The notes under the pieces were generated by a model. That model was not told the origin of the DNA and did no database searches. It worked only from the letters and a program-made list of their open reading frames with translations. A stretch of DNA of 64,000 bases, taken from a virus. The stretch is from the IMG/VR virus record IMGVR_UViG_3300005663_001084, positions 88,929-152,928 of that record. The stretch is one strand, 5' to 3'. A program made the translations under genes and the position numbers. Of the stretch, positions 5,345 to 52,280 are shown piece by piece (the first letter of the stretch is position 1; the number at the start of each line of letters is the position of its first letter).

Positions 5345-5668
5345 TCAACTTGAGTCTTTTTCTTCCTGGTGCCGCAAAATCATGCCCGTGCCCCGGCAGT
5401 GCGAGCATGGGTGGTCCTTGAGCAGCTTCAGGACGTCGCCGACTCTGCCGGTGGCTTTCAAAACTTGGCCCTCGATATCGAGACCGGTACCGTCGCACTG
5501 CTCGCACTCGTTGGGGTCCGGCTCGCGGCCGTAGCCCGCCTCGGCCAGGATGTCGGCAATCTCGTCGCAGGTATCGGAGTCCCAGTTGCTGTCGTCACCC
5601 TCGCGGCCAGACGGCCAGAGGATTTTGCAGACCTTCTTGATCACATCGTCGGAGGATAGTTCAGACAT
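5345..5668 (-). CDS. small DnaJ-type (CxxCxGxG) zinc-finger protein
   Basis: CEQCDGTG and CSHCRGTG repeats. Start moved to the internal Met, which overlaps the upstream stop as TGATG. Confidence 0.5.
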   Translation of the reverse strand: MSELSSDDVIKKVCKILWPSGREGDDSNWDSDTCDEIADILAEAGYGREPDPNECEQCDGTGLDIEGQVLKATGRVGDVLKLLKDHPCSHCRGTGMILRHQEEKDSS

Positions 5669-6741
5669 CACGAGAGCCTTTGGAATGGATTGAACCCGTA
5701 CTTGTCCCATAGAGTTATATCATATTCCCGCTCGACCGTCTCGGGTTCGATGGCCAGTCCAAAGATCTCGTTGGCGTTCGAGAAGGTTGTCCTCAAAATC
5801 AGGTCCTCGGAAGCGCCTCGCTCTCGCAGGATCTCAATGCCGCGTGGCCAGAAGGGCAGTGCTGGAATGCCGGACGGTGGGGTGCTGGAGTCCTTGGCCT
5901 CGACCGGATGCGGCGCGTGGTCGGTGCCGATGACGTCGATCTTACCGTCCAAGTACTGGTTGAGCAGTTCCTCCTGGGACGCTGGACTGCGCAGTGGTGG
6001 GTTCATCTTGACCCGGTTTCCGTGGATGGCATAGTCGTCCCAGTTCAGCAGCAGATGGTGGAACGTCCCCTCGATGACAACCTTGTACGGCGGCTTCTCG
6101 TGATGCCTGTACCAGTCAGCGAAGTTGACCGTCTTCGGTGAGCTTGCGTGCGCGATGTAAAACGTGCCTGCGAACCCAGCCTCATGCGCCCACTTCAACT
6201 GCTTCACGATCTGGATAATCTCGGCGTTCTCATGCTGATGCGTTGAATGAGACAGGGGCTCGTCCGGATCGAACTTACCCTGGAAGGCGCTCTCCATCTC
6301 AAAGTGCCCGATGACCGGACCGGTAAAGCCAATCATGGCAATGGTCCGCCAGAGCCACTGCTGATAGGCCCCGTTCAAGATACCCATGTCGCCTGTGCTG
6401 TGGACGAAGAAGATCTTGATGGCGGTGTCCGCAGCCTTCGCGTACAGGATCGCGGCGACGGCCTGCTCGTAGTCCGTGGTCAGCCCGATGTGGCACTTGT
6501 GGCTCACATCTCCCGAGATCGTGCCCTCGTCGTATAGGTGGCGCGAGAGCTTGTAGAATTTCACGCGACGCTCTGCGATGATGTGCCCCTTCACCAACCA
6601 TGGCTTGGGGTTCGGCTGCTCCAGCAGGTACGCGACACCGGCCGCGTCAGCATCCTCGATGGCCCACTGCATGAACGAATGGTCCGGATACTCCAGGCCG
6701 CGCAGGTGCACATGTGGATCGATGGGGGTAACGTATTCCAT
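5668..6741 (-). CDS. pyrC: dihydroorotase-like cyclic amidohydrolase
   Basis: IDPHVHLR (HxH metal site) and GTDHAPHPVEAK (dihydroorotase signature 2). Start set at MEYVTP because the track's MGRRNL is really the SD GGTAGGAGG. Confidence 0.65.
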   Translation of the reverse strand: MEYVTPIDPHVHLRGLEYPDHSFMQWAIEDADAAGVAYLLEQPNPKPWLVKGHIIAERRVKFYKLSRHLYDEGTISGDVSHKCHIGLTTDYEQAVAAILYAKAADTAIKIFFVHSTGDMGILNGAYQQWLWRTIAMIGFTGPVIGHFEMESAFQGKFDPDEPLSHSTHQHENAEIIQIVKQLKWAHEAGFAGTFYIAHASSPKTVNFADWYRHHEKPPYKVVIEGTFHHLLLNWDDYAIHGNRVKMNPPLRSPASQEELLNQYLDGKIDVIGTDHAPHPVEAKDSSTPPSGIPALPFWPRGIEILRERGASEDLILRTTFSNANEIFGLAIEPETVEREYDITLWDKYGFNPFQRLS

Positions 6742-6760
6742 GAGATTCCTCCTACCCATG

Positions 6761-17745: not shown

Positions 17746-18327
17746 TTACTCCATCAGCGATTCGAGGACGGTCTCGCTTACGGTGGGCTCTTGCTGTGCG
17801 GGGCGGATGGCGAAGGTGATGTGGAAGTCCTGCGCCTTGCCTTCCTCGGACTGAGGCAGCTTCTTGAGGCCGAGGCTGCGGCGAAGCTGTTCAAGCTGTG
17901 GGCTGTCAACCTGGACGAACCAGACGCGGCTCATCTCGTCCCAGCCTGCCGGATCGAGATCGATCACGTCGCCCAGGGTGTACTCGTAGAAGCCCGCACC
18001 GACCTTGTCCTTCCACTCATCGCCGTGCTTGTCGCGAAGCTGCTTGGCCTCGTCGTTCTTCACGACGGTGATATGCGGATTGTCGAAGCTGGGGATGACA
18101 TCGTCGACCAGTTTGCCCTGCGCCTTCAAGGTGGCGAAGACCATGGCCGGGATCACGTCGTCGACTTCGAGGCAAACCCAGGGCTTGTCCGGATCAGTGT
18201 CTTCCGGCTTGAGCTTGCCCATGAAGGTGAGGGGGCGGCGGTTGTGCGCGCCGTCGATCTCGTCCAGGAACTGGAGGTCGAGCCAGTCAGCCTGCATACA
18301 GGTCGCCGTAGCCTCGAAGAGCCCCAC
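17746..18327 (-). CDS. hypothetical protein
   Basis: 193 aa ORF. Confidence 0.4.
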   Translation of the reverse strand: MGLFEATATCMQADWLDLQFLDEIDGAHNRRPLTFMGKLKPEDTDPDKPWVCLEVDDVIPAMVFATLKAQGKLVDDVIPSFDNPHITVVKNDEAKQLRDKHGDEWKDKVGAGFYEYTLGDVIDLDPAGWDEMSRVWFVQVDSPQLEQLRRSLGLKKLPQSEEGKAQDFHITFAIRPAQQEPTVSETVLESLME

Positions 18328-19640: not shown

Positions 19641-19887
19641 CTGCTACCCTCCCGAACCGTTCGTCGGCGTCAGTTCTCTCATTGGGCCATGGCACGAACT
19701 CGGCGATGATCCTGCCCGGAGCCCGGACGTAGAAGCCCTCCGCGCCTACCTGGGTGACTGTGCCACCCGGGCACCGCTGACCGGCGGCGTACTCAGCCCG
19801 CGCCCACTGGCGCTTCTGTTCGGCCCGGTGCCGCCGCTCCTGGGGGTCTTCCTGGCCCTGCTTGGGTTGTGTGTTACGTGACATCAT
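19630..19887 (-). CDS. small hypothetical protein
   Basis: Start set at MMSRNT to avoid a 38-nt overlap. Confidence 0.3.
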   Translation of the reverse strand: MMSRNTQPKQGQEDPQERRHRAEQKRQWARAEYAAGQRCPGGTVTQVGAEGFYVRAPGRIIAEFVPWPNERTDADERFGRVAGPG

Positions 19888-21022
19888 AACCTCTGCTTTC
19901 TGCGGCTCCATGCCCCGCTGCGGTCTTCCTGACCAGGATAGGCCAGATCCATACCAGTTTGCGTTCCCTGCGCCCCTCGCCTATGGCCACTCTCCGGAAG
20001 TGGCCCTTGCGCCAGTGGGGCCTGGGAGACTTCCGGGAGCCCTCCCCGCCCTCGGTGGGCTCTGCTTCGACCTGATCGATCAGGGGCTTGATCTTGACCG
20101 AGGAGCCCACCACGACCTCCTGAGGAATCATGCCCTCCTCGATCTGACGCCTGACCGATTTGCGTCGTTTGGAACTGGTCTTTCGTTTCTTGAAGTCTTG
20201 GAGCCGGACGTAAAGCTCGTGCGGGTTCTCCAGGATGTCGGCGTCCGGGCAGGACATGTAGAGGAACAAATTGGCCACCACACGGACCAGGATCGAGTCC
20301 ACGTCTGTCCGCTGCCAACGCATCTGTCCACCGGCCAGGAGGTGCGCGATTGGATCGAAGACCTGGGCCTGATCCAGCTTGTCCTGCTGCTCTATGCCGA
20401 GCATTACGAGGTTATCGACCGAACGGGTCTCACCCTCGTCCCAGCCGATGTTCTGAAACCGTACCGTCCAGTCGTGGTGTGTCTTGTCCTGCTCCCCGCG
20501 AGCCACGTAAAGCACGCGGCACTGGTAGTCGATGTCTGCCAGTGTCTTTCCGCCGGACGAGGTGAAGACCTGGGCCATAGGTCCCGGTTCCCCGACCGGT
20601 CCCCAAGACACGTAGCAGCCCTCGGCCTCGACGTACCCCCCACGAACTCCAGGAAAGCGTACGCGGTTGGGCGGCAGCGCAATATAGACGGCGGGAAACG
20701 GCGGGTGAATCTCGCTTATTGCCAAGCGGGCCTCAGTCTCAACCAGTAAATCAAACAGATCGGCCGAAGGCCTGATCACGTGACGACCGCAGGCGTCCCA
20801 GACTGCTGTTTGATAGATCTCGTTGACCGCTGGAGAGTGCCCAGCCGTGCCTCGGATCATCGTCTTGACAGCCTCGGACTCTACGAAGTAGGCAAAACCC
20901 GTGCGCTCCGAACTCACATGGCTCCTGGCCTCATCCCAGTCCACGCCCAACATCCGCATCAGCGGGTGTTTCATCATCCGGTCGCGGAAGGATTTCCAGT
21001 GCGTGAGTTTCTCTTTGGCCAC
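19874..21022 (-). CDS. hypothetical protein with basic KRKTSSKRRK segment
   Basis: 382 aa ORF. Confidence 0.45.
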   Translation of the reverse strand: MAKEKLTHWKSFRDRMMKHPLMRMLGVDWDEARSHVSSERTGFAYFVESEAVKTMIRGTAGHSPAVNEIYQTAVWDACGRHVIRPSADLFDLLVETEARLAISEIHPPFPAVYIALPPNRVRFPGVRGGYVEAEGCYVSWGPVGEPGPMAQVFTSSGGKTLADIDYQCRVLYVARGEQDKTHHDWTVRFQNIGWDEGETRSVDNLVMLGIEQQDKLDQAQVFDPIAHLLAGGQMRWQRTDVDSILVRVVANLFLYMSCPDADILENPHELYVRLQDFKKRKTSSKRRKSVRRQIEEGMIPQEVVVGSSVKIKPLIDQVEAEPTEGGEGSRKSPRPHWRKGHFRRVAIGEGRRERKLVWIWPILVRKTAAGHGAAESRGYDVT

Positions 21023-21031
21023 GGTGTGTCC

Positions 21032-21373
21032 TCATCTCCTCTTCGGAAACATCCTGTCGATTTCCTCGTCGCTCTTGCCCAACCGTTTGAACTCTGAGCG
21101 GAGGAACTCTTCGTGCCGGTACTCCTGTAACCTGCGGTCGCGCTGCGTGTTCATAGCGCTGAACGCCGCCAGCAGACCGTTACCTGCCTCAAGTCTGCGC
21201 ATGGCCTGGGCACTGCGCCGCAGAGACTCGGACCGATCTTCCGGAGTCTCCTTTGGATCTGATTCCGGTGGCTTGCCCAGGCAGCACTTCTTGAACTTCT
21301 TGCCGCTGCCGCAGTGGCACGGTGAGTTGCGTCCGAACTTAGGCATGTCAGCCGCCCTCTCGGGTGTAGACAT
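21032..21373 (-). CDS. SEC-C motif (SecA C-terminal zinc-binding motif) protein
   Basis: SPCHCGSGKKFKKCC matches CxCGSGxK[YF]KxCC. Confidence 0.65.
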   Translation of the reverse strand: MSTPERAADMPKFGRNSPCHCGSGKKFKKCCLGKPPESDPKETPEDRSESLRRSAQAMRRLEAGNGLLAAFSAMNTQRDRRLQEYRHEEFLRSEFKRLGKSDEEIDRMFPKRR

Positions 21374-22225: not shown

Positions 22226-23200
22226 TTATTCCAGGAGTTCCAGCACCCTATGGACGAACCGGGGACCCGCATTGGGACCCCGTACGAAGCCGTTGTAGAC
22301 CTGGACCAGTGGAGCCCCGGCCTTCAGGTATTGGAGCACCTCAACGGCGCTGAAGATCCCGCCGCAGCCGATTACGACCTTCTTGATATGCGCCGTCACG
22401 TAATGCACCAGCGCCACACTCAGGCCCCGGACAGCGTCTCCGCTCCGACCGCCCTTGCCGTACTTCTCATGGACCGAGGGAAGCGTGTTCGAGCAGATGA
22501 AGCCTGACAAGTTGAAGTCGTCGGCGAGGATCAGGATCTGTTCGAGGTCATCGCCTTGGATATTGGGCGACAATTTGACCAGGAGTGGTCGGCCCCTGCG
22601 ATACAGGCAGCAAGCGTTCAGGAGTTCTCTCAGTGCGCTGGGGTCCTCGAACGTCTTGCCCTCGGCCGTGTTCGGACAGCTTATGTTGAGAACCGTGTAC
22701 GCCCCAAGGCCGCCCAGGAGCCGGTAGCTCTCGCTTATGTCCTCGATGGCCGCGTCGCCCATGATGTTGGGATCGTGCGTCTTGGCGATGTTGACGCCGT
22801 AGGCCTGCGAGCGGCACATCAGCAGGCGTTCCCGGACCATCCAGGCAGGCTCGCCGTTGAGACCCATCCGGTTCATCACGTCGCGGTCGCCGACACGGAA
22901 CATCCTGGGCCGCTCATTACCTGGGCCACCCTGACAGGTCACGCTGCCCACCTCGACCCAGCCGAAGCCGTAGTCCTCGGCCACGTCCACAAGAATGCCA
23001 TTCTTATCGAAACCGGCCGCGAGGCCGATGGGGTTGTTGATCTCGGTACCGAAGAGATGGGTCTTGAAGATGTCGGGATTGTTACCTTCCGGCTCGTACA
23101 GGCCGGGGGCTAAGCGCCGCTTCAGCATGCCCCGCACAGCGATATCGTGGGCGCGCTCAGGATCGAGAAGGGTAAGAAGGAGGTGGGCCAGTCTTTCCAT
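22226..23200 (-). CDS. pyrD: dihydroorotate dehydrogenase (quinone), class 2
   Basis: LDPERAHD N-terminus; NPIGLAAGFDKNG; GFGWVEVGSVTCQGGPGNERPR (signature 1); VVIGCGGIFSAVEVLQYLKAGA (signature 2); SCPNT. Confidence 0.85.
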   Translation of the reverse strand: MERLAHLLLTLLDPERAHDIAVRGMLKRRLAPGLYEPEGNNPDIFKTHLFGTEINNPIGLAAGFDKNGILVDVAEDYGFGWVEVGSVTCQGGPGNERPRMFRVGDRDVMNRMGLNGEPAWMVRERLLMCRSQAYGVNIAKTHDPNIMGDAAIEDISESYRLLGGLGAYTVLNISCPNTAEGKTFEDPSALRELLNACCLYRRGRPLLVKLSPNIQGDDLEQILILADDFNLSGFICSNTLPSVHEKYGKGGRSGDAVRGLSVALVHYVTAHIKKVVIGCGGIFSAVEVLQYLKAGAPLVQVYNGFVRGPNAGPRFVHRVLELLE

Positions 23201-25576: not shown

Positions 25577-26915
25577 CTTTGCGCTCCCAGTAAAGTTTCA
25601 GCGCCTCAGTCCCACAGCGGTCCTGAAACTGGTCGATAGTGTCCTCGTTATCCAGGCCCTTCCGGATCATGTCGTCAACAATCTCGGGGCAGTCCACCAG
25701 TATACGCTCCGCGAGCCTGCGCAGTCCAGACTCTTCGGGGTTTGGGATTTCCAGTATCCGATTGATCCGGCCGGGGCGGGAAGCGATTTCTCCGCTCTGC
25801 CTCCCGGACAAGGCCGGGTCGAGCACGTCGAGCCGGTTCGTGGTGACGATCAGGAACAGGCCGTCCACGCGCTCGACCCCGTCGATTCGGTTGAGCAGGC
25901 AGTCAAACGTGAGCGGTTGCTTCATCTGGGACTTGATGACGTTCTCGCGGCCCTCGAAGACTGTGTCGATATCTTCGAGCAGCGCCATACAAGGCGTGTC
26001 GTCGAGCATGTCGTTCCACTCTTTGCTGAACTCGGAGTTGCTCATGCTCGCCAGATCGTAGACGTAGACAGGTAGGTTGAGATCCTCCGCCACTGCACGG
26101 GCCAAAGTCGTCTTGCCGTTGCCGGGCCTGCCGTGAAGAAGCCAACCGCGTCTCCAGGGCAGGCTCCGCTCGAAATACCAGTCCCGACTCTTGTGCCAGC
26201 GCTTCGCCTCTTCCACGACGTCGACTAGAGCGCTGTGGATAATCAGACTATCAAGCGCATCCTCGTCTTCGCTAACCTTCTGAGGGCCGAAGTCATCGTG
26301 GGTCCATACCAGGGGTCGGTGTTGACGCATAGAGAGCAGGTAGCCAGCGCTGTCGTCGTCCTCTCGGCCAGCGAGAACAGGACCTTGACTCGTATCTTTA
26401 TCGACGGTGTACTGAGAACTTCCTGAGATGTAGATCACTTCGTAGCGGTTGAAGCTCTTGTCCGTGCGAAAGGAGTTGTACATCTCCGCAGCTTTGACAG
26501 CCAACTCATCCGGATCGAACGTGCCACGCAGGTAGCGCACCACGAAGCCCTTACGATTACCTTCCTCGCTATCGGAATTGCCGGATTCGCTAACCCAGAG
26601 AAAGCGCCAGCCCTTTCGGAAGATTTTGACATTGGTGGACAGTTTCTCGAAGGCGACCAGAACGCGACGCCGCTCCGGTCGGACAAATAGCTCGTCACCA
26701 AAGAATGTTCGGGACGTGTAGCGGGAGGCTGTGAACTCCCGGAACAGGTACATCTTGAATCCCTGAGTCAGCTCCCCCCGTTGAAAGGTGGTGGTCCGTA
26801 CAACGTGCTCAACGATCTGTCCGAGGAACGTCTTGATGTGCCTCCAGAAGCCGACGATCAGACCGCCGATGCCTACGCCGCCAAGGATTGCGAGTGGGTT
26901 GCTGAGGAGGTCCAT
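25467..26915 (-). CDS. BCS1-like AAA+ ATPase with N-terminal transmembrane anchor
   Basis: MDLLSNPLAILGGVGIGGLIVGFW transmembrane segment; Walker A GWLLHGRPGNGKTTLARAV; LFLIVTTN; BCS1-type layout. Confidence 0.6.
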   Translation of the reverse strand: MDLLSNPLAILGGVGIGGLIVGFWRHIKTFLGQIVEHVVRTTTFQRGELTQGFKMYLFREFTASRYTSRTFFGDELFVRPERRRVLVAFEKLSTNVKIFRKGWRFLWVSESGNSDSEEGNRKGFVVRYLRGTFDPDELAVKAAEMYNSFRTDKSFNRYEVIYISGSSQYTVDKDTSQGPVLAGREDDDSAGYLLSMRQHRPLVWTHDDFGPQKVSEDEDALDSLIIHSALVDVVEEAKRWHKSRDWYFERSLPWRRGWLLHGRPGNGKTTLARAVAEDLNLPVYVYDLASMSNSEFSKEWNDMLDDTPCMALLEDIDTVFEGRENVIKSQMKQPLTFDCLLNRIDGVERVDGLFLIVTTNRLDVLDPALSGRQSGEIASRPGRINRILEIPNPEESGLRRLAERILVDCPEIVDDMIRKGLDNEDTIDQFQDRCGTEALKLYWERKDEQAESGDGGGHPADADGHAEPERSGVHAGSDGEAR

Positions 26916-27736
26916 CAGATCTCGAAAGTCTGCCCGACCTCAACGAAGCCTGCGAACCCATTGTTCTGCGCCTTACCGTGACCCTCGAAAACTTCCGGTA
27001 CCGAGTTGTAATGATAGAGCCACATGCGCTCTTTGATCTCCGGGTCCAATGTCGCCAGATCATCGTAGTGCGCGTGCACGTTCGAGCGGAATGGTGTCGT
27101 CTCACAGTCGTGCAGGATCGTGGCTGCCTGCTTGTAGAAGTCACGAAGCTGATTCGGACAAAACTGTGTATCGCCTGTCAGAAATGTCTTCGGCAGCGCG
27201 GGGATCGTCATGGTCCCCTTCTTGTATTTCTGAATCATCAGGCCGTAGCAGTGCATGATCCGGTAGCCGGACACGACGTGTACCGTCTGGACTGGCGTGA
27301 GCAGCACGTCTTCCCATACGAACGAGTCGTTGATCTTGAGCGGCTGACAGTCGAAGAACGTGGTCAGCGTGGCCTCGCCGCCCTGGATCGTGGACAGGCC
27401 GCCCTTGAGGCTGCTGTCCCAAAGCTCGTGCATCAGACCCTCGATGCAAAACAGCTTGGGCTTTCCCAAGGTCGGGTTGAAGTACGTACACAGCGCCAGC
27501 CATTCCAGGCCACCGATATGATCCGCGTGCAGATGTGTGATGTAGACGCCGTCGATGTACGACAGGCCGGAGGGATCGTCGCTGTCACCATACTGCTCGT
27601 GCAGCATGTCCTGGGAGCGCTGGCCGCAGTCGATCAAGAGCCGCTTCCCGCTTTCGGCTTCGATGACCATGTTGGACTGGCCGAGGCCCGCCCCGGCGAA
27701 CGCAGATCCCACGCCTACGAACCGGAGTTTTGGCAT
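26915..27736 (-). CDS. metallo-beta-lactamase-fold hydrolase (RNase Z / ElaC-like)
   Basis: YITHLHADHIGG HxHxDH motif; start coupled to the AAA stop. Confidence 0.6.
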   Translation of the reverse strand: MPKLRFVGVGSAFAGAGLGQSNMVIEAESGKRLLIDCGQRSQDMLHEQYGDSDDPSGLSYIDGVYITHLHADHIGGLEWLALCTYFNPTLGKPKLFCIEGLMHELWDSSLKGGLSTIQGGEATLTTFFDCQPLKINDSFVWEDVLLTPVQTVHVVSGYRIMHCYGLMIQKYKKGTMTIPALPKTFLTGDTQFCPNQLRDFYKQAATILHDCETTPFRSNVHAHYDDLATLDPEIKERMWLYHYNSVPEVFEGHGKAQNNGFAGFVEVGQTFEI

Positions 27737-29027: not shown

Positions 29028-29324
29028 TTAATCCGACCTGCCGTCCTCTTCATCGTACAGGCGGCCAACCGACAAATCCAACCGCTGGTACTCTGGAGGC
29101 TCTTCCTGAACCTGGAGCCAGATGCCCTCTTCCTCGGCCATAGCCTGCTCATACACACGCTCAGTCATAGGCCAGTACCTGGAGAACTTGCTGACACTGA
29201 CGACCACACCGACACGCGCCAGGAGCGCTCGGGCACGTTGCTGGCTGTTGGCGGCCACCAGGGTCCGGACTGGGTTCCCGTCGGTGGTCAGGTGGCTCTG
29301 GCCAGCAAACATTTTCAGTGGCAT
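29028..29324 (-). CDS. hypothetical protein
   Basis: Start set at MPLKMFAGQ, coupled via TGATG to the small ORF upstream. Confidence 0.35.
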   Translation of the reverse strand: MPLKMFAGQSHLTTDGNPVRTLVAANSQQRARALLARVGVVVSVSKFSRYWPMTERVYEQAMAEEEGIWLQVQEEPPEYQRLDLSVGRLYDEEDGRSD

Positions 29325-29467
29325 CAGCGCTTCTCTTTGGGTGGATTCCAGATCATCGCGCGGTTGCATTTCTGGCAAACTGCGCTGTTTTTCTCGCTAT
29401 CCATGATGTGTTTCGTGGTCCGGTGGCAGCCACGGCAGTAGTGATTCTCCAGCAGTGGCTTTCTCAT
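29324..29467 (-). CDS. 47-aa zinc-ribbon protein
   Basis: MRKPLLENHYCRGCHRTTKHIMDSEKNSAVCQKCNRAMIWNPPKEKR; not in the track because it is under 60 aa. Confidence 0.35.
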   Translation of the reverse strand: MRKPLLENHYCRGCHRTTKHIMDSEKNSAVCQKCNRAMIWNPPKEKR

Positions 29468-29506
29468 AACCTCAGGATAGCACATGGTGATCCAATTTCA
29501 AAATGA

Positions 29507-29651: not shown

Positions 29652-29936
29652 TTAGTCTCGCGATACCACGCTCCGTACAGTATACCAGCCCCGGCGCTCC
29701 TCCATACGACCAGTCTCAGGGTTCTTCCAAATCTCGTACCAGATAAAGTTCCCAGACCCCTCGACCATCCAGCGTTCCTTCCCGGCGATGATCCCGAGCG
29801 ACTGACCTGAGAACTTGGGAGCGTTCGGCAGCCCATTGTCTGGAGGGCTGGGCAGGCCCATCTTGTGCCACTTCAAGCAGCATTTCTTATACTTCTGCCC
29901 ACTCCCGCAGGAGCAAGAGTCATTCCGCGTCGACAT
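29652..29936 (-). CDS. SEC-C motif protein
   Basis: CSCGSGQKYKKCC. Confidence 0.65.
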   Translation of the reverse strand: MSTRNDSCSCGSGQKYKKCCLKWHKMGLPSPPDNGLPNAPKFSGQSLGIIAGKERWMVEGSGNFIWYEIWKNPETGRMEERRGWYTVRSVVSRD

Positions 29937-44041: not shown

Positions 44042-44623
44042 TCAGACCAGTTCGATTTTGATGTAGGTGCCGCGCTCGGCACCCTTCTCCATATCTTTGG
44101 CCAGGACCTGCTTCTGGTCGTAGTCTCGTTCAAGCCACTGCTTCGTGTCGTCTTTGATCCAGCCCAGCCGGACCAGGATGTCGACGAGTCCCTTGGCGCT
44201 CCCCGCTGCGAGATTCTCCTCGTCGACCAGAAGCTGCCGGTGCGACACCAGCGTGAGCTTGACCCGCTGCTCAACGCGCCGCACGGACCCGAAAGATTCC
44301 TTCTCCAGTGCCCGGTAGGCTGCCCCCTTGTCACGAACCCGCAGATGAGGCGACTGGTGGTAGCGGTTGACCGACCGGCAGTGGAAGTCCAGGAAGGTCT
44401 CCAGCGGATACTCCCCTGGCTTCAGGTCCTTGTTCTCCGGGTACCGAAACTCCTTGCTCCGTACGTTGGACGTCTTCTTTTTCTTCGCTGGCTTCGGTTC
44501 GGCGAGCTTCTTTTTGCCCTTGTCGCACCGGGGACAATCACTGTCCTTGATCTTCTCCAGGTTGATCTTGACCGCCCCGCCGCAGCGCGAGCAGGTTCCA
44601 TCCACATACTTACCCAGAGGCAT
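44042..44623 (-). CDS. rusA: RusA-like Holliday junction resolvase with N-terminal zinc ribbon
   Basis: CSRCGG...CPRC; SVNRYHQSPHLRVRDKGAAYRA and LVDEENLAAGSAKGLVDILVRLGWIKDD can be aligned to RusA motifs (NRYY...AYR; DLDNL...DAL..G.W.DD). Confidence 0.6.
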   Translation of the reverse strand: MPLGKYVDGTCSRCGGAVKINLEKIKDSDCPRCDKGKKKLAEPKPAKKKKTSNVRSKEFRYPENKDLKPGEYPLETFLDFHCRSVNRYHQSPHLRVRDKGAAYRALEKESFGSVRRVEQRVKLTLVSHRQLLVDEENLAAGSAKGLVDILVRLGWIKDDTKQWLERDYDQKQVLAKDMEKGAERGTYIKIELV

Positions 44624-47031
44624 CAGGGCCTGTACCTCGCCCGGCCTCGGCGAGCCGCCGGGTGGTCCGGATCGGGTTTGTCAGGGCGTACGCCCTGATT
44701 CGGCTTTGCAGCGCGAGACCAGCCGCCAAACAGGCCTGACTCGCCTTCCGTAGAAGCACCTGTGGCGCGACCAAGTGTCTGAGTCGCAGGCTCGTCCGCT
44801 GCGAGAGCGAGGAAGTGGTCCAGGGTTTCTTTCGCCCCGGCCACATGCTTATCGTTCAGGTCCACCGCGTGCTCGCGGCAGAGAGTCTTGAGCTTCTCCA
44901 GGTCGAACGTGGGCGCGGAGATCTCTTGCAGTTTCTCCGCCACCTGTTCGGCCGAGTTCGGATCGACCCACAGGTGCCGTTGGAGAAACTCGTCTTTGTA
45001 GGCGTGGGCAGGCGTCGTAGACGGACCGATCACCGGCACACCCAAGAGCAGCGCCTCAATCGAGGCGTACGAAAAGGTCTCTGAGTGGCTCAGATGGACC
45101 ATGGCGCTGCACGTCTGAAGCATCCGGCGCACGGCCTTGGAGTCGTGGAGGTTGAACGACGCGAACGCGCACATCAGATGCGTCAGAAAAGCGTCGATCT
45201 CTTTGTCCCGAAGAAGCCACTGCGAGATATTCGCGTGCAAGCCTGCGCGAGCAATTCCGGCAAGGGCCACCAAGAGATTCTTGCGAGGGTGCGTCGGTCC
45301 AAGAACCGCCACCATGAACTTCGGCGGCAGATACGGTTCCACACGGGGAGCGACCTGTTCCAGCGGCGGGCGAAGCGCTTCACCTCCGACCGTGCACGGC
45401 AGCCACCGAAACCGGTCGGCCGGATACTGCGTCAGCAAGTGCTGGTAGGTCGCGGCGTCGTCCTCATAGGAGGTAACCATACCACCTATCCGGTCGGCGC
45501 GGACCAGAGCCGTCAGGTCGATCCATTCTTGAATCTCTTTCGGCTCGAACGCCATCTGCGAGAGGTGCGAGCACCAGGAAACCACCGTACGCTTCGGGAA
45601 GCTCTTCGCGATCCTTTGGGCCATCGGCTGCTTGAGCGAGCCGCTGAACAAAAACAAGTCGTAGTCCGCCGTGTCTACGCGTTGAATCGAATGGATCGTG
45701 GTGTAACCGCAGCCGGTGACCTTGGCGAGGCTCCGGCACATGCTCTGTACACCCGGACCTCCGGCCGAGACCACGAGCACCCGGCGACGCGGCAGGACCT
45801 CCAGGATCTTTGGAACCACGTCTTCCATGCGATGTTGGTGCGCGTAGGGCGTCTCGGCATGGAACCCGTCCGTGAACGCATCCCAGTCATCCTGGACGTT
45901 TCCGCACAGGATATTGTCCAGGGCGTCTTCCCAGATCTTGATAGGCGCAGTCTGCGGGACGACCACGCCACCTGGACCCAGCATGCTGTTTTCCGGCGGG
46001 TCGTACAGCCCTTCCCGCCGACGCTCCTCGTGGTACTCCCGATCCGGAACCATCGCCCGGTCGAGCACGATGTTCGGCAGGTTGCCGTTGTCCGTGCAGA
46101 GCACCGGGCAACCGGACAGGCGAGCCTCGACAGCCACGCGGCTGAACGTCTCGGCCGTCAGCGTCCCGATGAACACGCACTTGGCCTTGGCGTAGACCCC
46201 GGCCATGTCGTCTGTCCACCTGAGAACCTCGACGTTCGGCCTGCGGACGCAGGCAGCGATCTCGTTCTTGTGGTGAGTCCGCTCGTACTCGGTACTCAGG
46301 ACAGCGAACTTCTCGTCCTGGAAGTGGTCAGCCAGAGCCAGGAACCGGCGCAGACCCTTGAGCGCCTGCACCGAGGTCATCAAGACGTACTCCCGCTCCA
46401 GGTAATGAGGCGCATCCTTGGCGATAGATCGCGGAGAGTGGCCCGGGAACGCGATCATGGGTTTGCGCCCCAGAGTCCGTTCCATGACGTTGGCCGTGAA
46501 GTAGCTGTTGGCGATCAGGATCTGGTGATTCGCCACGGCCTGGACGCCTTCCTCATTGGAGTCGGCTTCCGCAGGCACGCCGTAGCGTACGAGATCATTG
46601 AACTGACACCTGGATAGCTCGCCTCCGTGAAGCTGCTGGTCCTCCTTGTGGACGTGCAGGAAGTCCAGCCAGAACTGAACGTAGTGAACCGACGGAATGT
46701 GGAGGGCCTCGGCGACGTGGGCCGACTGAACGGCCGTGCCGGAGCCTCGCGACATCAGGATGTCCGGCCGGATCTTGACGGCGGCCTCGCGCAGGCCGCC
46801 CTCGGCAATCTTCATCGGCGTCACGCCGTCCGGCAGTTTGACCTTGCCGTCGTAGTGGCCACGATGGTAGACGCAGAAAACCTCGCAGCCGTGCTTGACG
46901 AAAGCCTGGGCGAAGTCCTCGCCACTAAGCTCGCCGCCTCCCAGACCGTGTCCGAACGACTTGGAAAACAGCATAACGACGGGCTTCTCCCGTCTTGGGG
47001 GCATAACGGGACTAACGAGGATACTGTCCAT
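44623..47031 (-). CDS. large tandem GT-B (GT4-like) glycosyltransferase
   Basis: PVVMLFSKSFGHGLGGGE; ETFSRVAVEARLSGCPVL; SETFSYASIEALLLGVPVIG (EX7E motifs). Confidence 0.6.
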   Translation of the reverse strand: MDSILVSPVMPPRREKPVVMLFSKSFGHGLGGGELSGEDFAQAFVKHGCEVFCVYHRGHYDGKVKLPDGVTPMKIAEGGLREAAVKIRPDILMSRGSGTAVQSAHVAEALHIPSVHYVQFWLDFLHVHKEDQQLHGGELSRCQFNDLVRYGVPAEADSNEEGVQAVANHQILIANSYFTANVMERTLGRKPMIAFPGHSPRSIAKDAPHYLEREYVLMTSVQALKGLRRFLALADHFQDEKFAVLSTEYERTHHKNEIAACVRRPNVEVLRWTDDMAGVYAKAKCVFIGTLTAETFSRVAVEARLSGCPVLCTDNGNLPNIVLDRAMVPDREYHEERRREGLYDPPENSMLGPGGVVVPQTAPIKIWEDALDNILCGNVQDDWDAFTDGFHAETPYAHQHRMEDVVPKILEVLPRRRVLVVSAGGPGVQSMCRSLAKVTGCGYTTIHSIQRVDTADYDLFLFSGSLKQPMAQRIAKSFPKRTVVSWCSHLSQMAFEPKEIQEWIDLTALVRADRIGGMVTSYEDDAATYQHLLTQYPADRFRWLPCTVGGEALRPPLEQVAPRVEPYLPPKFMVAVLGPTHPRKNLLVALAGIARAGLHANISQWLLRDKEIDAFLTHLMCAFASFNLHDSKAVRRMLQTCSAMVHLSHSETFSYASIEALLLGVPVIGPSTTPAHAYKDEFLQRHLWVDPNSAEQVAEKLQEISAPTFDLEKLKTLCREHAVDLNDKHVAGAKETLDHFLALAADEPATQTLGRATGASTEGESGLFGGWSRAAKPNQGVRPDKPDPDHPAARRGRARYRP

Positions 47032-47819: not shown

Positions 47820-49520
47820 TCACCCAGCTTTCTTGCGCTCTTCCTGGCCTTCTTCGTTTTGACCGCCAGACTTCTCGTTCATTTTCTCAACCTCTTCCTG
47901 CTTCTGTTCCTTGGTCCGCTTGTCGTTCTTGATCTGCTCCCGGATGTCCAGGGGCAGATGGATGACTTTCGACCCGACCTGCCAGGGCTTCTGACGCTCA
48001 CGGGCCTGATCCTCGTCCAGGGCCTTCTTGACCGCGTCGCTCTGCATCGCCTTCTCAGCGACCTCTTCCGATGGAACGCCCTGCTTCTCCAGTTCCTGCA
48101 TCGCGCGCAGCACCACATCGGTGAAGCTGCGACTGAACACGCCGAGTTCGGTCAGGATGACCTGCATCCAGGTGGCCGGGTCGATGTTGATCGTGGTGCC
48201 GATACGGGCCATGTTGTCGAGCGCCCGGATGCGCGCGTCCATGACTTCGAGGCGGTAAAGCTCTTCCAGGCTGCTGGGCGGCACCATGTTGAGCGTAAAC
48301 TGGTTCTCTTCCGTGTACGGGTCCACGCCTTTGTAGATCATGTGGATCATGCACAACTGGGCGGCCTCGCTCAGGAACACGCGCTGCGAGGTGGCGGCCT
48401 GCCGAGCGAACCGCAAGTCCTGCTGGCTCGGGCTGCGCTCGTAGTTGGCGTTGCCGCCGTCGAAACCGAAGTAGGCCGGGGGCGCACGGAGCGCGCCGAA
48501 CATGCGATTGAGGAACATCTCGAAGTCGCGCAGGTCGTCCAGGCCCTGAACGCCGCTGAGGACCTCGATATTTGTGTTGTCCTTTTCCCGGACCCCGATG
48601 AACAGGTCCTCGTGCTCGCTCAGGAGCGTGTAGACCGAGGCGAAGTCGCGCGTGGACGTGTCAAACCGGAAGTCCCGCTTGATGCTCTGGCGATGCTTCT
48701 CGATCTTGCGGTCCGCGTCGATGGCCGGGAGGCCGGACGTATCGACCTTGTGCAAGTAGCGATTGGGCAGGCGGAGCAACCGCATCAGCGCCAGCTTGTC
48801 CTCCATCATCTGGACCTGTCGCCAGATCCGCCGCGCGCCGTAGAGCACCGAGGTGCCGTACATGCGGCTGTGGTTGCGGCCGAGGCGGCGGAAGTGCAGG
48901 AAGTCCCACGGCTTCGTCAGAAGCTGCTCGTCCTTGACCTTGTAGGCCTGACCACCCCAATACATCGAGTCCTCGGTCTGGTAGGGTGTGAAGCCCTTCA
49001 GGCGTCCGTACTCGTCGTGGACGCGGGTGACCGTGGCCGGGTGGTACGGGATCAGGCGTGTGACGCCTTCCTTCTGCTCGCCAACGATGAACTCCCACCA
49101 TTCGCCGTACTTGTCGGTCTGGCGGATGATCGGCTGAGGGAGGTTGTTGGCGAGGCCCGTCTCCCGGAGCATGTCGTTACACATGCGCTCGACTTCGGGG
49201 TTCTGAGCTTCGCACCAGACGACAACGCCGTGCCGCGTGTCCCGCTGCGTGGCGTCTTCGGAAAGCTGTTCGAGGTAGCTGTAGATGGTCGGGTCAAGCT
49301 CCATCTCGTCGTACAGCGTGTAGAGCAGGCCGCGCTCCTCCTCGAACTGGAGAAGCTGGTTGTACATCTGGGCGATGGGGTTGGGCAGGCGGCCCATCGG
49401 GACTTCGACGCCCATAGCTCCCGGGAACGGAAGCGTGAGCGGATCGCGGGACAGGAACTTGTCGAAACCAAACATCCGCAGGATGTAGGTCTGCGGGTCC
49501 CAGATCATTTTCCTAGCCAC
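47820..49520 (-). CDS. portal protein candidate
   Basis: 566 aa, directly downstream of and overlapping TerL; charged EK-rich C-terminus. Positional/size argument only. Confidence 0.45.
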   Translation of the reverse strand: MARKMIWDPQTYILRMFGFDKFLSRDPLTLPFPGAMGVEVPMGRLPNPIAQMYNQLLQFEEERGLLYTLYDEMELDPTIYSYLEQLSEDATQRDTRHGVVVWCEAQNPEVERMCNDMLRETGLANNLPQPIIRQTDKYGEWWEFIVGEQKEGVTRLIPYHPATVTRVHDEYGRLKGFTPYQTEDSMYWGGQAYKVKDEQLLTKPWDFLHFRRLGRNHSRMYGTSVLYGARRIWRQVQMMEDKLALMRLLRLPNRYLHKVDTSGLPAIDADRKIEKHRQSIKRDFRFDTSTRDFASVYTLLSEHEDLFIGVREKDNTNIEVLSGVQGLDDLRDFEMFLNRMFGALRAPPAYFGFDGGNANYERSPSQQDLRFARQAATSQRVFLSEAAQLCMIHMIYKGVDPYTEENQFTLNMVPPSSLEELYRLEVMDARIRALDNMARIGTTINIDPATWMQVILTELGVFSRSFTDVVLRAMQELEKQGVPSEEVAEKAMQSDAVKKALDEDQARERQKPWQVGSKVIHLPLDIREQIKNDKRTKEQKQEEVEKMNEKSGGQNEEGQEERKKAG

Positions 49521-51507
49521 GGGCTGCGTTCCTTTCTGTCATCATGTTTCGGACGTGCTGTAGAATCACGTCCTCGTGGGCCATCTCTTGGATCTCAGTC
49601 GAGACCATGAGCGTGCCCAGGTTCTCGTCTTTCACGCATAGGTATACCGCACCGCATAGGGAGTCTGCAACATCTTTGCTGCCGCCCTCCGGGTGATCGA
49701 CCTTGCCCGCATCGATATCGTCTTCCAGGGACAGCAGTTCGTCGACCAGGACCTCGTTCGGGGCGTGCGAGAGGCGCATCTCGTTGTAGACCGTCTTGAG
49801 GACTTCGTAGGGCTCCTTCTTTTTATCGACGCTCAGGTACTGGGTTCCCGTGAAGCCCGCCTTCTGAAGCTGCTGGATCGTGTCCGGACTGGCTGGGGAG
49901 TCCACGCCGATCTTCTCAAGCTGGAACCCGTGCCCCGCCAGCCAGTAGACGAACTCGCGGACCTTTCCCCAGTCAATCTCGGTCAGTTCCTGCTTGATCT
50001 GGATCGAGAAGTCAGACGCGATAATCAGTTCGGTCCGGCGAATGATGTCGCCGTTCTTGTCGCGGTCCGGCCTCGACACGGCCCGGGTCGGGTGGACCAT
50101 GGAGATCCCGAGCGCGTCTTCCGTACGCCCCAGGTCGATGTGCAGGTATCGCGGAGCGTGCGGGAAGTTCCGGGGCACCGTCCGGCTGTTCCGGGTCGTA
50201 AACATCCTATCCAGGTCGATGAAGTCCTGGATCTGGTCGGCAGTCTCCAGGTCGATGCGAATGGGCTTACCTACGACCGCGCCCATCCCCTCGATGAACG
50301 GATGACTGAACTCCGGCAATTTGTTGAGCGCCTTATCAACCACGGCCGAGCGGGGGAAGAACGGCATGATCTTGTCAGTCGCGATGCCCGCAATGTCCCG
50401 GGACGCACCCAGGGGATCTTCCTCGAACGCGCGGTGGTGCTCAACCGGGATTTCGATGGTCCTGCCGCCAAGGGGGGACTTCTCGTCGTCAGTGAGAATC
50501 TTCGGGTCCTTGAACTTGTTGCCCACGAAGAAGCGGAACTTAGCGCCTGTGTAGCGATCATCCGGCTGGAACTCCCAGCGCGCACCGTCGACGATGTGGA
50601 CGCCGGGCTTGCCCGCGATCTCTTTCTTGCGAAGTTCCAGGTAGCTGGTGGACGACTTGGCCGACGACAGGTGGAGCAGGATACCCGGGTTCTCCCCCCG
50701 GTGTGCGAAGCGCGACTCCAACCGACGTGCGGTTGCGTTCACCATCTCGTGGACCTGCCCCTTGTCGCTCATCTTCTTCGCGCGGGCCTGCTTCTTGGTG
50801 ATCCGCATGAAGTTCATTTCGTCGATGGCGATGCCGAACAGGTGGTGGCCCATGACGTGGAAAGCCTGCGAGCCCACCATGACGTGGATGTTCTTCGGGA
50901 ACTTGAATCCGTCTTTGCCCTCCGCCTCGAAGGGGAAGACCTCCTTGAAGTACGGACTCTTCTCCAGCAGGCCGCGCATGGACTCCACGCCAACGTCGGT
51001 CAGTTTCAGCGTGGCGTTGTACAGACCGAACGTAATGCGGCTCTCGTCGAACTGGCCATGGAACTCGGCCGGGCGGCGCAGGCAGCTAAGCCGGTAGATC
51101 TTGTATAGCATGATGATCATCGCGGCCGTGGTCTTGCCGACGCCGATGGCACCGCTGAACACGACCTCGTAGATCTTGTTGGCCGGAGTGCAGATGTAGG
51201 CGATCTCTTTCCGCCACCGAGGCCAAATGCTCCCGTAGAAGTTCCCCAGATACAGGTCGTTCTGCATGAACTCCTGAATCTCTACAGGGTCGCGCTCGTA
51301 ATCGACCTGGGTGAGGTAATCCAGGGCGACCGACTTTCCGCCGTTGATGATCTCGGTGAACGCGCGAAGAAGGTAGGCCTTCTGAACCTCGTCCATGCGA
51401 TCAAACATGGCAGCGAGCTTCGGATTCTCCAGTTCGAGGAGGTTGCGGATCTCGTCGTCCGTAAACTCGACTGGAGGTGCTTCGGGCTGTAGGACTGTCT
51501 CGCCCAT
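49513..51507 (-). CDS. terminase large subunit
   Basis: Walker A VFSGAIGVGKTTAAMI; C-terminal nuclease-like IDLGRTEDALG; start set at MGETV (SD GGAGAGG, TAATG coupling). Confidence 0.7.
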   Translation of the reverse strand: MGETVLQPEAPPVEFTDDEIRNLLELENPKLAAMFDRMDEVQKAYLLRAFTEIINGGKSVALDYLTQVDYERDPVEIQEFMQNDLYLGNFYGSIWPRWRKEIAYICTPANKIYEVVFSGAIGVGKTTAAMIIMLYKIYRLSCLRRPAEFHGQFDESRITFGLYNATLKLTDVGVESMRGLLEKSPYFKEVFPFEAEGKDGFKFPKNIHVMVGSQAFHVMGHHLFGIAIDEMNFMRITKKQARAKKMSDKGQVHEMVNATARRLESRFAHRGENPGILLHLSSAKSSTSYLELRKKEIAGKPGVHIVDGARWEFQPDDRYTGAKFRFFVGNKFKDPKILTDDEKSPLGGRTIEIPVEHHRAFEEDPLGASRDIAGIATDKIMPFFPRSAVVDKALNKLPEFSHPFIEGMGAVVGKPIRIDLETADQIQDFIDLDRMFTTRNSRTVPRNFPHAPRYLHIDLGRTEDALGISMVHPTRAVSRPDRDKNGDIIRRTELIIASDFSIQIKQELTEIDWGKVREFVYWLAGHGFQLEKIGVDSPASPDTIQQLQKAGFTGTQYLSVDKKKEPYEVLKTVYNEMRLSHAPNEVLVDELLSLEDDIDAGKVDHPEGGSKDVADSLCGAVYLCVKDENLGTLMVSTEIQEMAHEDVILQHVRNMMTERNAARG

Positions 51508-52280
51508 TACCTCTCCCTCTTGAGTTGCCTCCGCCGGATGACCGTCTTCAGGTGCCGGGGCACCTTCCACTCCAGCAGGCCATCGGAGATACTGTCGATC
51601 TCGGACATGGAGACCTCAGGGAAGCGGGCCTTGAGCCACCGCCGCGTAGCGCCCAGGGCGGCGAACGCCCAGACGAGGTCTGACTTCTTGCGGCCGGTGG
51701 GGCTGCCGATGATATCGAGCAGGGTAGCGGGCGTGTGGCCCTTGCAGTCGAACTCGTTACGCACGCTGTCGTGAATGATGTTTGCAATGAGTCCGTTTCG
51801 GGTACGCCACTTCTGGACACGCTGGTGGTGGCAGCCCATGACGCAAGCGATAGCGCAGTCGCTCCAACCTTCCTCCCACATCTTACGGAAGAGTTTCTCA
51901 TCAGTCCCAAAACGGCGCTGCTTGCCCGTGGGGATGTTCAGCTTCTTGAGCCAGCGCTGGATCGTACACAGAGACACGCCGATGCGCACGGCAAGCTGCT
52001 CATCCGTGAGATCGGCACCTTCTTGGATGACGAGATCGCGGATCTGCTGCGCGATGGAAATGAACAGGACCTGACTGGCCTGAGCGTGGTTGCGCGAGAC
52101 GTTGAGCCGCGCCCTCATGTACCAGACGGTCGAATGAGGGACGTCGAGCCTTCTGGAAAGTTCCCGCTTGCTCGCGTGCGGGTGCCTCTCAAGTACATCC
52201 AGAAGACGCTGCTCAAGCTCTTTTCTCTCCTCCGGCGTCCGGTGGCGATTCTGCAATCTGCTGGTGGCTGTTGCCTCCAT
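51507..52280 (-). CDS. HTH DNA-binding protein, putative terminase small subunit
   Basis: Several HTH-like segments (LSRRLDVPHSTVWYM; VRIGVSLCTIQRWLKKL); directly upstream of TerL. Confidence 0.4.
   Translation of the reverse strand: MEATATSRLQNRHRTPEERKELEQRLLDVLERHPHASKRELSRRLDVPHSTVWYMRARLNVSRNHAQASQVLFISIAQQIRDLVIQEGADLTDEQLAVRIGVSLCTIQRWLKKLNIPTGKQRRFGTDEKLFRKMWEEGWSDCAIACVMGCHHQRVQKWRTRNGLIANIIHDSVRNEFDCKGHTPATLLDIIGSPTGRKKSDLVWAFAALGATRRWLKARFPEVSMSEIDSISDGLLEWKVPRHLKTVIRRRQLKRER

Follow-up and report, generated by a model that had tools for sequence, protein, structure and literature searches.

Introduction

This article is about two small phage genes whose products each begin with SEC-C, the zinc knuckle that forms SecA's C-terminal metal-binding domain (MBD), and about what such a knuckle may be doing at the head of so short a protein. 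The genes lie in a viral stretch of 64,000 nucleotides (hereafter the window, meaning the whole of the DNA that was analyzed), which spans positions 88,929 to 152,928 of IMG/VR record IMGVR_UViG_3300005663_001084. The window is a piece of a large uncultured phage genome: it has a G+C content of about 60%, carries a terminase, a T4-like portal and 11 tRNAs as phage hallmarks, and has all of its plausible genes on the minus strand, to which the gene coordinates given below refer. The first SEC-C protein has an identical counterpart in NCBI, LCGC14_0164960, which comes from a metagenome of marine sediment; the longest recorded contig with the gene measures 224,854 bp. A megablast search with 12 kb of the window returned no near relative among GenBank phages. 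An earlier note on this DNA had joined the two SEC-C proteins to a J-domain protein and a zinc-finger mini-protein as one set of genes tailored to host chaperone and secretion hubs. All four open reading frames (ORFs) are indeed present on the minus strand where the note placed them, and the motif observation was correct, while the interpretation built upon it was over-extended.

Two small proteins that begin with a SecA-type metal-binding domain

Protein 1 (104 amino acids; 21032-21346, minus strand) consists of an N-terminal zinc knuckle, a disordered linker, a long helix and a short helix, and protein 2 (94 amino acids; 29652-29936, minus strand) has a SecA-type zinc knuckle at its N-terminus and, behind it, about 70 amino acids of orphan sequence. 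Their motifs, CHCGSGKKFKKCC at 21281-21319 and CSCGSGQKYKKCC at 29877-29915, were located by regular expression on the minus strand and are the only two occurrences of the strict pattern C.CGSG.K[FY]K.CC in a six-frame translation of the window; none of 200 shuffled versions of the window contains the pattern, and a chance origin of the motifs is rejected on that count. Both proteins also pass the Pfam SEC-C model PF02810, whose gathering score is 20.4 bits, with 33.0 bits for protein 1 (E = 5.5e-8) and 32.1 bits for protein 2 (E = 1.1e-7), and the claim that the phage carries two perfect SEC-C motifs is thereby borne out; the same threshold check, which the earlier note had itself named as the way to refute it, places the DnaJ (PF00226) and zinc-finger (PF00684) matches of the other two ORFs, discussed further on, below their cut-offs. 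Both motifs fit the published ligand pattern CxCx8C[CH] with its conserved serine and aromatic residue (bioRxiv 10.1101/2020.07.21.215244), and beyond the four ligands both proteins retain the whole consensus RN..C.CGSG.K[FY]KKCC, its basic surface residues included. Both ORFs are genuine genes, each encoding a small protein with a canonical SecA-type MBD at its beginning.

The span first assigned to protein 1, 21032-21373, is only the longest ORF. Its likely start is M10 at 21346, which gives the 104-residue product, lies one base past the upstream stop codon and is preceded by a GAGAGGG stretch; the same start is used in the NCBI call (P0001), and the closest homologues begin MAKFGRN. The G+C content at third codon positions is 0.74 and resembles that of the adjacent genes. 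Other metagenome assemblies supplied six full-length homologues (55-67% identity), and one more lies in a locus numbered L091, which makes a small and rare family of eight sequences across which the zinc knuckle and a C-terminal block, RHExFLRSEFKxLGxxDEEID, are conserved; patterns derived from this block found zero relatives in Joint Genome Institute (JGI) metagenomes, IMG/VR or GTDB genomes. In an AlphaFold2 (AF2) model computed from the family alignment, with a mean predicted local distance difference test (pLDDT) score of 72, the knuckle occupies residues 8-23, the disordered linker 24-34, the long helix 35-88 and the short helix 93-99. The sole PDB fold match that Foldseek found for this model is the C-terminus of SecA bound to SecB (1OZB chain I), to which the modeled knuckle aligns over 17 columns with a root-mean-square deviation of 0.7 Å and 76% identity (E = 0.9, pLDDT 57-66 in the knuckle region).

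Protein 2 has a single database match, the JGI call P0024 (74 amino acids), which is identical but N-terminally truncated: it starts at a TTG 20 codons in, so that the SEC-C motif is omitted and the domain stands unannotated there. The ATG at 29936 is favored as the start of protein 2 because it brings in the in-frame PF02810 match of 32 bits. No relatives were found in IMG/VR, and the GenBank phages offered a 25-residue match to the motif and nothing more; beyond its knuckle, protein 2 is an orphan. The earlier note had called the two SEC-C proteins unrelated, and the profile comparison of their post-motif parts (hhalign) sides with it, giving a probability of 0.2% and no support for a relationship, with the caveat that a pairwise alignment of the same parts scored 42 against 22 ± 3.9 for shuffled sequences, a value reached by 1 of 2000 shuffles. 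Paralogy beyond the motif was set aside on the profile result, despite that pairwise score. About 170 nucleotides downstream of protein 2 lies a further small ORF of 53 amino acids (29324-29485, minus strand), which has two CxxC pairs (CRGCHRTTKH...CQKCNR) and a weak DUF1289 match and is a possible zinc ribbon.

SEC-C in known proteins and on viral enzymes

The C-terminal MBD of SecA (PF02810; 1OZB) has the same consensus, GRN..C.CGSG.K[FY]K.CC, and the same ligand spacing as proteins 1 and 2, but there it follows a flexible linker at the C-terminal end of the protein, whereas in the phage it stands at the extreme N-terminus of proteins of 94-104 amino acids that have no ATPase. That the SecA MBD binds SecB and ribosomes, as the earlier note stated, agrees with the literature (PMC6620043; bioRxiv 10.1101/2020.07.21.215244): the C-terminal tail of SecA sediments together with ribosomes and forms crosslinks to uL23, 52 species without SecB retain the MBD (PMC6620043), and YecA/AscA binds both SecB and 70S ribosomes by way of its MBD (bioRxiv 10.1101/2020.07.21.215244). 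Escherichia coli YecA/AscA and YchJ are likewise small non-SecA proteins with this MBD, the copy in YchJ being N-terminal, and the NCBIfam model of YchJ, PRK01752, matches the N-terminus of protein 2; however, their UPF0149 and UPF0225 domains are absent from the phage proteins and the remainders are unrelated. All NCBIfam matches of proteins 1 and 2 are confined to the motif and fall far below their cut-offs. Annotated SEC-C ORFs already exist in phages, as ORF49 of Vibrio phage Virtus and as PHROG 24700, and the lactococcal protein Rugutis has an N-terminal SEC-C motif; the likeness of all three to proteins 1 and 2 is limited to the motif. In Virtus the SEC-C ORF is also followed, at a distance of two genes, by one annotated as a 'zinc- or iron-chelating domain'. 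Phage SEC-C ORFs, like phage J-domain proteins, have thus been annotated before, and what proteins 1 and 2 add is for the most part the recognition of familiar motifs in a phage that is new.

A scan of IMG/VR confirmed at least 283 SEC-C-encoding stretches, from which 80 loci (L001-L080), drawn with motif-derived patterns, served as the viral sample. In these loci SEC-C lies mostly at the extreme C-terminus, N-terminal cases being few, and among the 46 non-redundant SEC-C ORFs the partner is a peptide deformylase in 18, DUF1186 in nine, DUF5522 in four and a translational GTPase in one. Across the 20 deformylase ORFs of the sample the EGCLS and HExDH motifs are retained throughout (20/20) and GxGxAAxQ in all but one (19/20), and the enzyme is followed by a C-terminal linker of about 20-30 residues and then by the SEC-C motif, as in L002:2193-2831, L008:4852-5445, L064:9479-10081 and L070:264-866 of IMG/VR. 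The SEC-C tag may here replace the C-terminal helix with which bacterial deformylase binds the ribosome; a literature search combining peptide deformylase with SEC-C brought up unrelated papers only. The NCBIfam methionyl aminopeptidase model PRK12318 carries the same tag, at the N-terminus as in the window proteins, which differ from both of these enzymes in having no enzyme domain at all. SEC-C is also part of TPR, DUF1186, DUF5522 and E2 architectures.

A candidate docking tag for the ribosome exit

Nascent chains emerging from the ribosome exit are the substrates of both peptide deformylase and methionine aminopeptidase. Because SEC-C is repeatedly fused to such nascent-chain enzymes, docking at the ribosome exit is favored over secretion, and the emphasis that the earlier note placed on secretion is not the best reading of a domain that, outside SecA, keeps recurring on enzymes of this kind. 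The deformylase and aminopeptidase fusions, taken together with the ribosome literature on SecA and YecA, make a ribosome-exit docking tag the best-supported interpretation and one that would fit better than a secretion-specific link, and I infer, with moderate confidence, that the MBD of proteins 1 and 2 is a small portable docking tag for the host ribosome. On this interpretation the MBD would place both proteins on the exit-tunnel side of the host 70S ribosome, near the site on uL23 at which the SecA tail crosslinks, and could also place them on SecB if the host has it; the remainder of each protein would then either keep host MBD proteins away from the site or deliver some other activity there.

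Several points weigh against a ribosomal tag. The fold match between modeled protein 1 and 1OZB is too short for statistical significance, as its E-value of 0.9 says; the fraction of deformylases is not an unbiased frequency, coming as it does from 80 pattern-drawn loci out of at least 283; and SEC-C is found in quite different company, namely in YchJ, a reported transcription factor that senses reactive oxygen species (PMC13377102), in the antiphage protein Rugutis (PMC11381338), and in the defense-candidate models E2, E1-E2 and PDC-S12 of PADLOC. The YchJ report, in which SecA-like MBDs belong to a redox-responsive regulator, speaks for the alternative that survives best, in which the SEC-C knuckle is a generic small zinc- or iron-binding fold with no ribosome or SecB connection and serves to stabilize the protein, to sense redox state or metals, or to bind nucleic acids. 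It is further favored by the finding of iron bound to SecA-like MBDs in vivo (bioRxiv 10.1101/613315) and by the spread of SEC-C over many unrelated architectures (DUF1186, DUF5522, TPR and E2). However, a purely structural knuckle explains the repeated fusions to deformylase and methionine aminopeptidase poorly, and proteins 1 and 2 keep the entire consensus, basic surface residues and all, and not the four ligands only. I regard this generic fold as unlikely.

The AcrVA2-family neighbor

Nine nucleotides downstream of protein 1 starts a gene for a 382-amino-acid protein of the AcrVA2 family (19874-21022, minus strand), for which the assignment to PF26125 was precomputed, as it was for all four other homologues found; phrog_6160 also matches the gene. 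The protein has a conserved C-terminal motif, PHWRKGHF (HxRxxH), and 1994 homologues at E <= 1e-3. A 72-sequence profile matches PDB entry 7ci1_A, AcrVA2, at E = 1.8e-9 in an alignment that spans the RPHxRRGHW motif and covers the C-terminal ~60 residues only, and in the 72 sequences the conservation of H336, R338 and H341 is 90% or higher; PDB searches with the single sequence or with a 5-sequence profile gave nothing, the larger profile alone reaching 7CI1, and the AF2 model (pLDDT 49) is too poor to use. The neighbor thus shares the conserved C-terminal HxRxxH with the AcrVA2/FinQ family (PF26125; PDB 7CI1), in which AcrVA2 needs H286, R288 and H291 for activity, binds the nascent N-terminus of Cas12a and brings about a translation-dependent loss of mRNA by a route that is unexplained, and of which most homologues are found where Cas12a is absent (all from bioRxiv 10.1101/2022.11.29.518452).

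A protein that acts on nascent chains next to a candidate ribosome tag raises the question of coupling. Protein 1 could be an accessory partner of the AcrVA2-like protein, its MBD tethering the pair to the ribosome exit, where the AcrVA2-type protein would read a nascent chain and cause the destruction of its mRNA; this is a doubtful proposition, and equally doubtful is its more concrete form, in which protein 1 would be a ribosome-exit tether whose knuckle docks beside the tunnel while its long helix holds the AcrVA2-like effector. Its attraction lies in the translation-dependent action of AcrVA2 on the Cas12a N-terminus and in the closeness of the genes, since a gene of the protein 1 family stands upstream of an AcrVA2-like gene in four related loci, 9 nucleotides away in the window, overlapping in L091 and separated by one or two small ORFs in L087 and L084 (homologues of these intervening ORFs are absent from the window). 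However, L089, which holds the closest AcrVA2-like relative (80% identity), lacks a SEC-C gene at the corresponding position; in L090 an RRM protein takes the place of the SEC-C gene and in L141 another gene does; in L086 the ~660 bp past the SEC-C gene are occupied by other ORFs; and in L085 and L142 no AcrVA2-like start falls within the 130-290 bp of contig that remain after the SEC-C gene. More broadly, the 153 best AcrVA2 homologues are all without a SEC-C motif, the 6 kb around each of 46 diverse viral AcrVA2-like genes (498 kb in all) contain no SEC-C ORF, and no AcrVA2-like gene is near SEC-C at the 80 viral loci, as judged with a narrow profile. A general functional coupling of SEC-C and AcrVA2 was accordingly rejected, four tests having given no generalization beyond the clade: the adjacency is local to one clade, and common descent suffices to explain its synteny.

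Two of the replacements deserve a mention in their own right. In L090, whose AcrVA2-like gene is 43% identical, the gene directly upstream of it encodes a 103-amino-acid RRM_1 RNA-binding protein (L090:7472-7783), strange company for a family whose members cause the loss of mRNA. In L089 the position of the window's SEC-C gene, directly upstream of the AcrVA2-like gene, is held by a cysteine-rich ORF of 93 amino acids (L089:680-961; CVRSGYCCKRAPCPFGEG...), to which the chelating-domain ORF near the SEC-C ORF of Virtus offers a parallel.

Possible counter-defense surroundings

The AcrVA2-like gene is followed, about 1.5 kb downstream, by a gene for a 2H-SAK phosphoesterase of the 'Swiss Army Knife' type (17746-18327, minus strand; PF22547, 38.2 bits against a cut-off of 27), and on the other side of protein 1 lies one for an anti-Pycsar Apyc1-type metallo-beta-lactamase protein (26915-27736, minus strand; PF23023, 85.2 bits against a cut-off of 50). 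These three genes of counter-defense type share the 17.7-30 kb stretch with both SEC-C genes, which suggests a counter-defense region, and because the SEC-C genes sit in this company a role for them in host takeover or counter-defense is plausible. A narrower version of such a role would make the stand-alone MBD proteins decoys that occupy the MBD-binding site and displace host SEC-C factors, defense proteins among them. The N-terminal SEC-C of Rugutis and the PADLOC models named above would supply such targets, and the 2H-SAK, AcrVA2-like and Apyc1 genes a fitting neighborhood, but genome context is the sole basis of the decoy idea, and I hold it to be a shade more doubtful still than a partnership with the AcrVA2-like protein.

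The J-like and zinc-finger ORFs

The third protein singled out by the earlier note, here called J-like (166 amino acids with a TTG start; 61909-62409, minus strand), carries helix II, HPD (61987-61995) and helix III within its C-terminal ~50 residues, in a unit that reads AFRKLAKERHPDRGGDPEAFKKLVEA and in which a basic helix II precedes the HPD and helix III follows it. The HPD motif is therefore as described, but the J-domain call did not hold: PF00226 reaches 22.8 bits where its cut-off asks for 27.8 and aligns over profile positions 15-49 of 63 only, and helices I and IV are missing, an acidic, proline-rich stretch lying upstream of the unit and the protein ending 23 residues past the HPD. 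Its last 51 amino acids match 45 PDB chains, nearly all of them J domains and each of them weakly (E = 1e-3 to 1), including CbpA, DnaJ, T antigens, TIM14 and Sis1, and all align over helix II, HPD and helix III. The protein is matched by phrog_9210 (1.5e-8); a search of GenBank phages gave no match and one of IMG/VR motif-level matches only, two of them on contigs named GVMAG. A plausible reading of the sequence is that of a minimal helix II-HPD-helix III unit that would contact DnaK, and not of a demonstrable J domain. The functional precedent is Rki, the product of gene 057w of phage RB43, which engages DnaK (PMC3486835) and is likewise phage-encoded with an HPD-bearing J unit. The J domain of Rki is, however, complete, N-terminal and ~70 residues long, whereas the J-like protein has a C-terminal unit of ~45 residues that lacks helices I and IV and stays below threshold.

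The fourth gene encodes a zinc-finger ORF of 107 amino acids (5345-5668, minus strand), the ATG of which overlaps the stop codon of an upstream dihydroorotase-like gene. It has two CxxCxGxG repeats, CEQCDGTG and CSHCRGTG (5483-5506 and 5384-5407), and so the repeats reported earlier are there; a DnaJ-type zinc finger requires four, which form two zinc centers, and two make up one zinc center's worth. PF00684 reaches 23.3 bits against a cut-off of 32.7. Among NCBIfam models the ORF comes closest to the anti-TRAP protein RtpA, whose cut-off of 65 bits it misses with a score of 25.2; there is no PDB sequence match, nor any match in GenBank phages, the sole collection searched for homologues of this ORF. 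It is a generic DnaJ/anti-TRAP-like zinc ribbon without a specific chaperone link, and the zinc-finger domain of DnaJ is in any case not its DnaK-docking element.

The idea that these four genes form a coordinated set docking onto host chaperone and secretion hubs has in its favor that SEC-C motifs and a J-like HPD unit co-occur in one genome, but it is very improbable, because the genes (at about 5.3, 21, 29.6 and 62 kb) are scattered over 57 kb without a common operon and in different neighborhoods with nothing to link them, because the DnaJ and zinc-finger calls are sub-threshold and the zinc finger has two repeats only, and because full-length relatives were found for protein 1 alone, which leaves co-conservation of the four not demonstrable. 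They are independent genes, not a coordinated module.

Other features of the window

The remaining genes of the window fill in the picture of a large phage. The T4-like portal (47820-49520) and the large terminase (49513-51570) adjoin each other on the minus strand, and the 11 tRNA genes (three for Ser, three for Leu, and one each for Tyr, Ile, Arg, Lys and Gln) form an array at 60441-63998 in which they are interspersed with HNH-endonuclease ORFs (60796-61362 and 62413-62895) and with the J-like ORF. Also on the minus strand are a pair of SbcC/Rad50-like and SbcD-like genes (53132-55384 and 55724-56860) and a gene for an 802-amino-acid protein with two GT4 glycosyltransferase modules (44623-47031). 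A dihydroorotase-like amidohydrolase (5668-6759, minus strand), whose scores do not reach the equivalog cut-offs, and a dihydroorotate dehydrogenase (22226-23200, minus strand; PF01180, E = 4.8e-53) point to phage-encoded pyrimidine biosynthesis. Finally, a Major Vault Protein (MVP)-like protein of 925 amino acids (57561-60338, minus strand) combines MVP shoulder, Vault_3 and SPFH/Band_7 domains, and its residues 549-889 match major vault proteins in the PDB at E ~ 2e-18; viral MVPs are known from gut phages (bioRxiv 10.1101/2023.11.10.566534), whereas this one belongs to a marine-sediment phage.

Outlook

The adjacency of protein 1 to an AcrVA2-family gene is a concrete, if weakly supported, candidate for co-translational action: should the tether be real, the effector would read a nascent host protein and trigger the destruction of its mRNA, which would supply the missing piece of the AcrVA2 mechanism, and in a broader sense the SecA MBD would serve phages as a movable address label for the ribosome exit, as it would in the deformylase-SEC-C fusions. 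If the ribosome-exit interpretation of SEC-C is true, phages carry the SecA MBD as a 20-residue address tag, both on their own deformylases and on tiny stand-alone proteins, and proteins 1 and 2 would offer simple means of probing, or of inhibiting, a docking site that is crowded, little mapped and, on this view, common to SecA, YecA, deformylase and methionine aminopeptidase.

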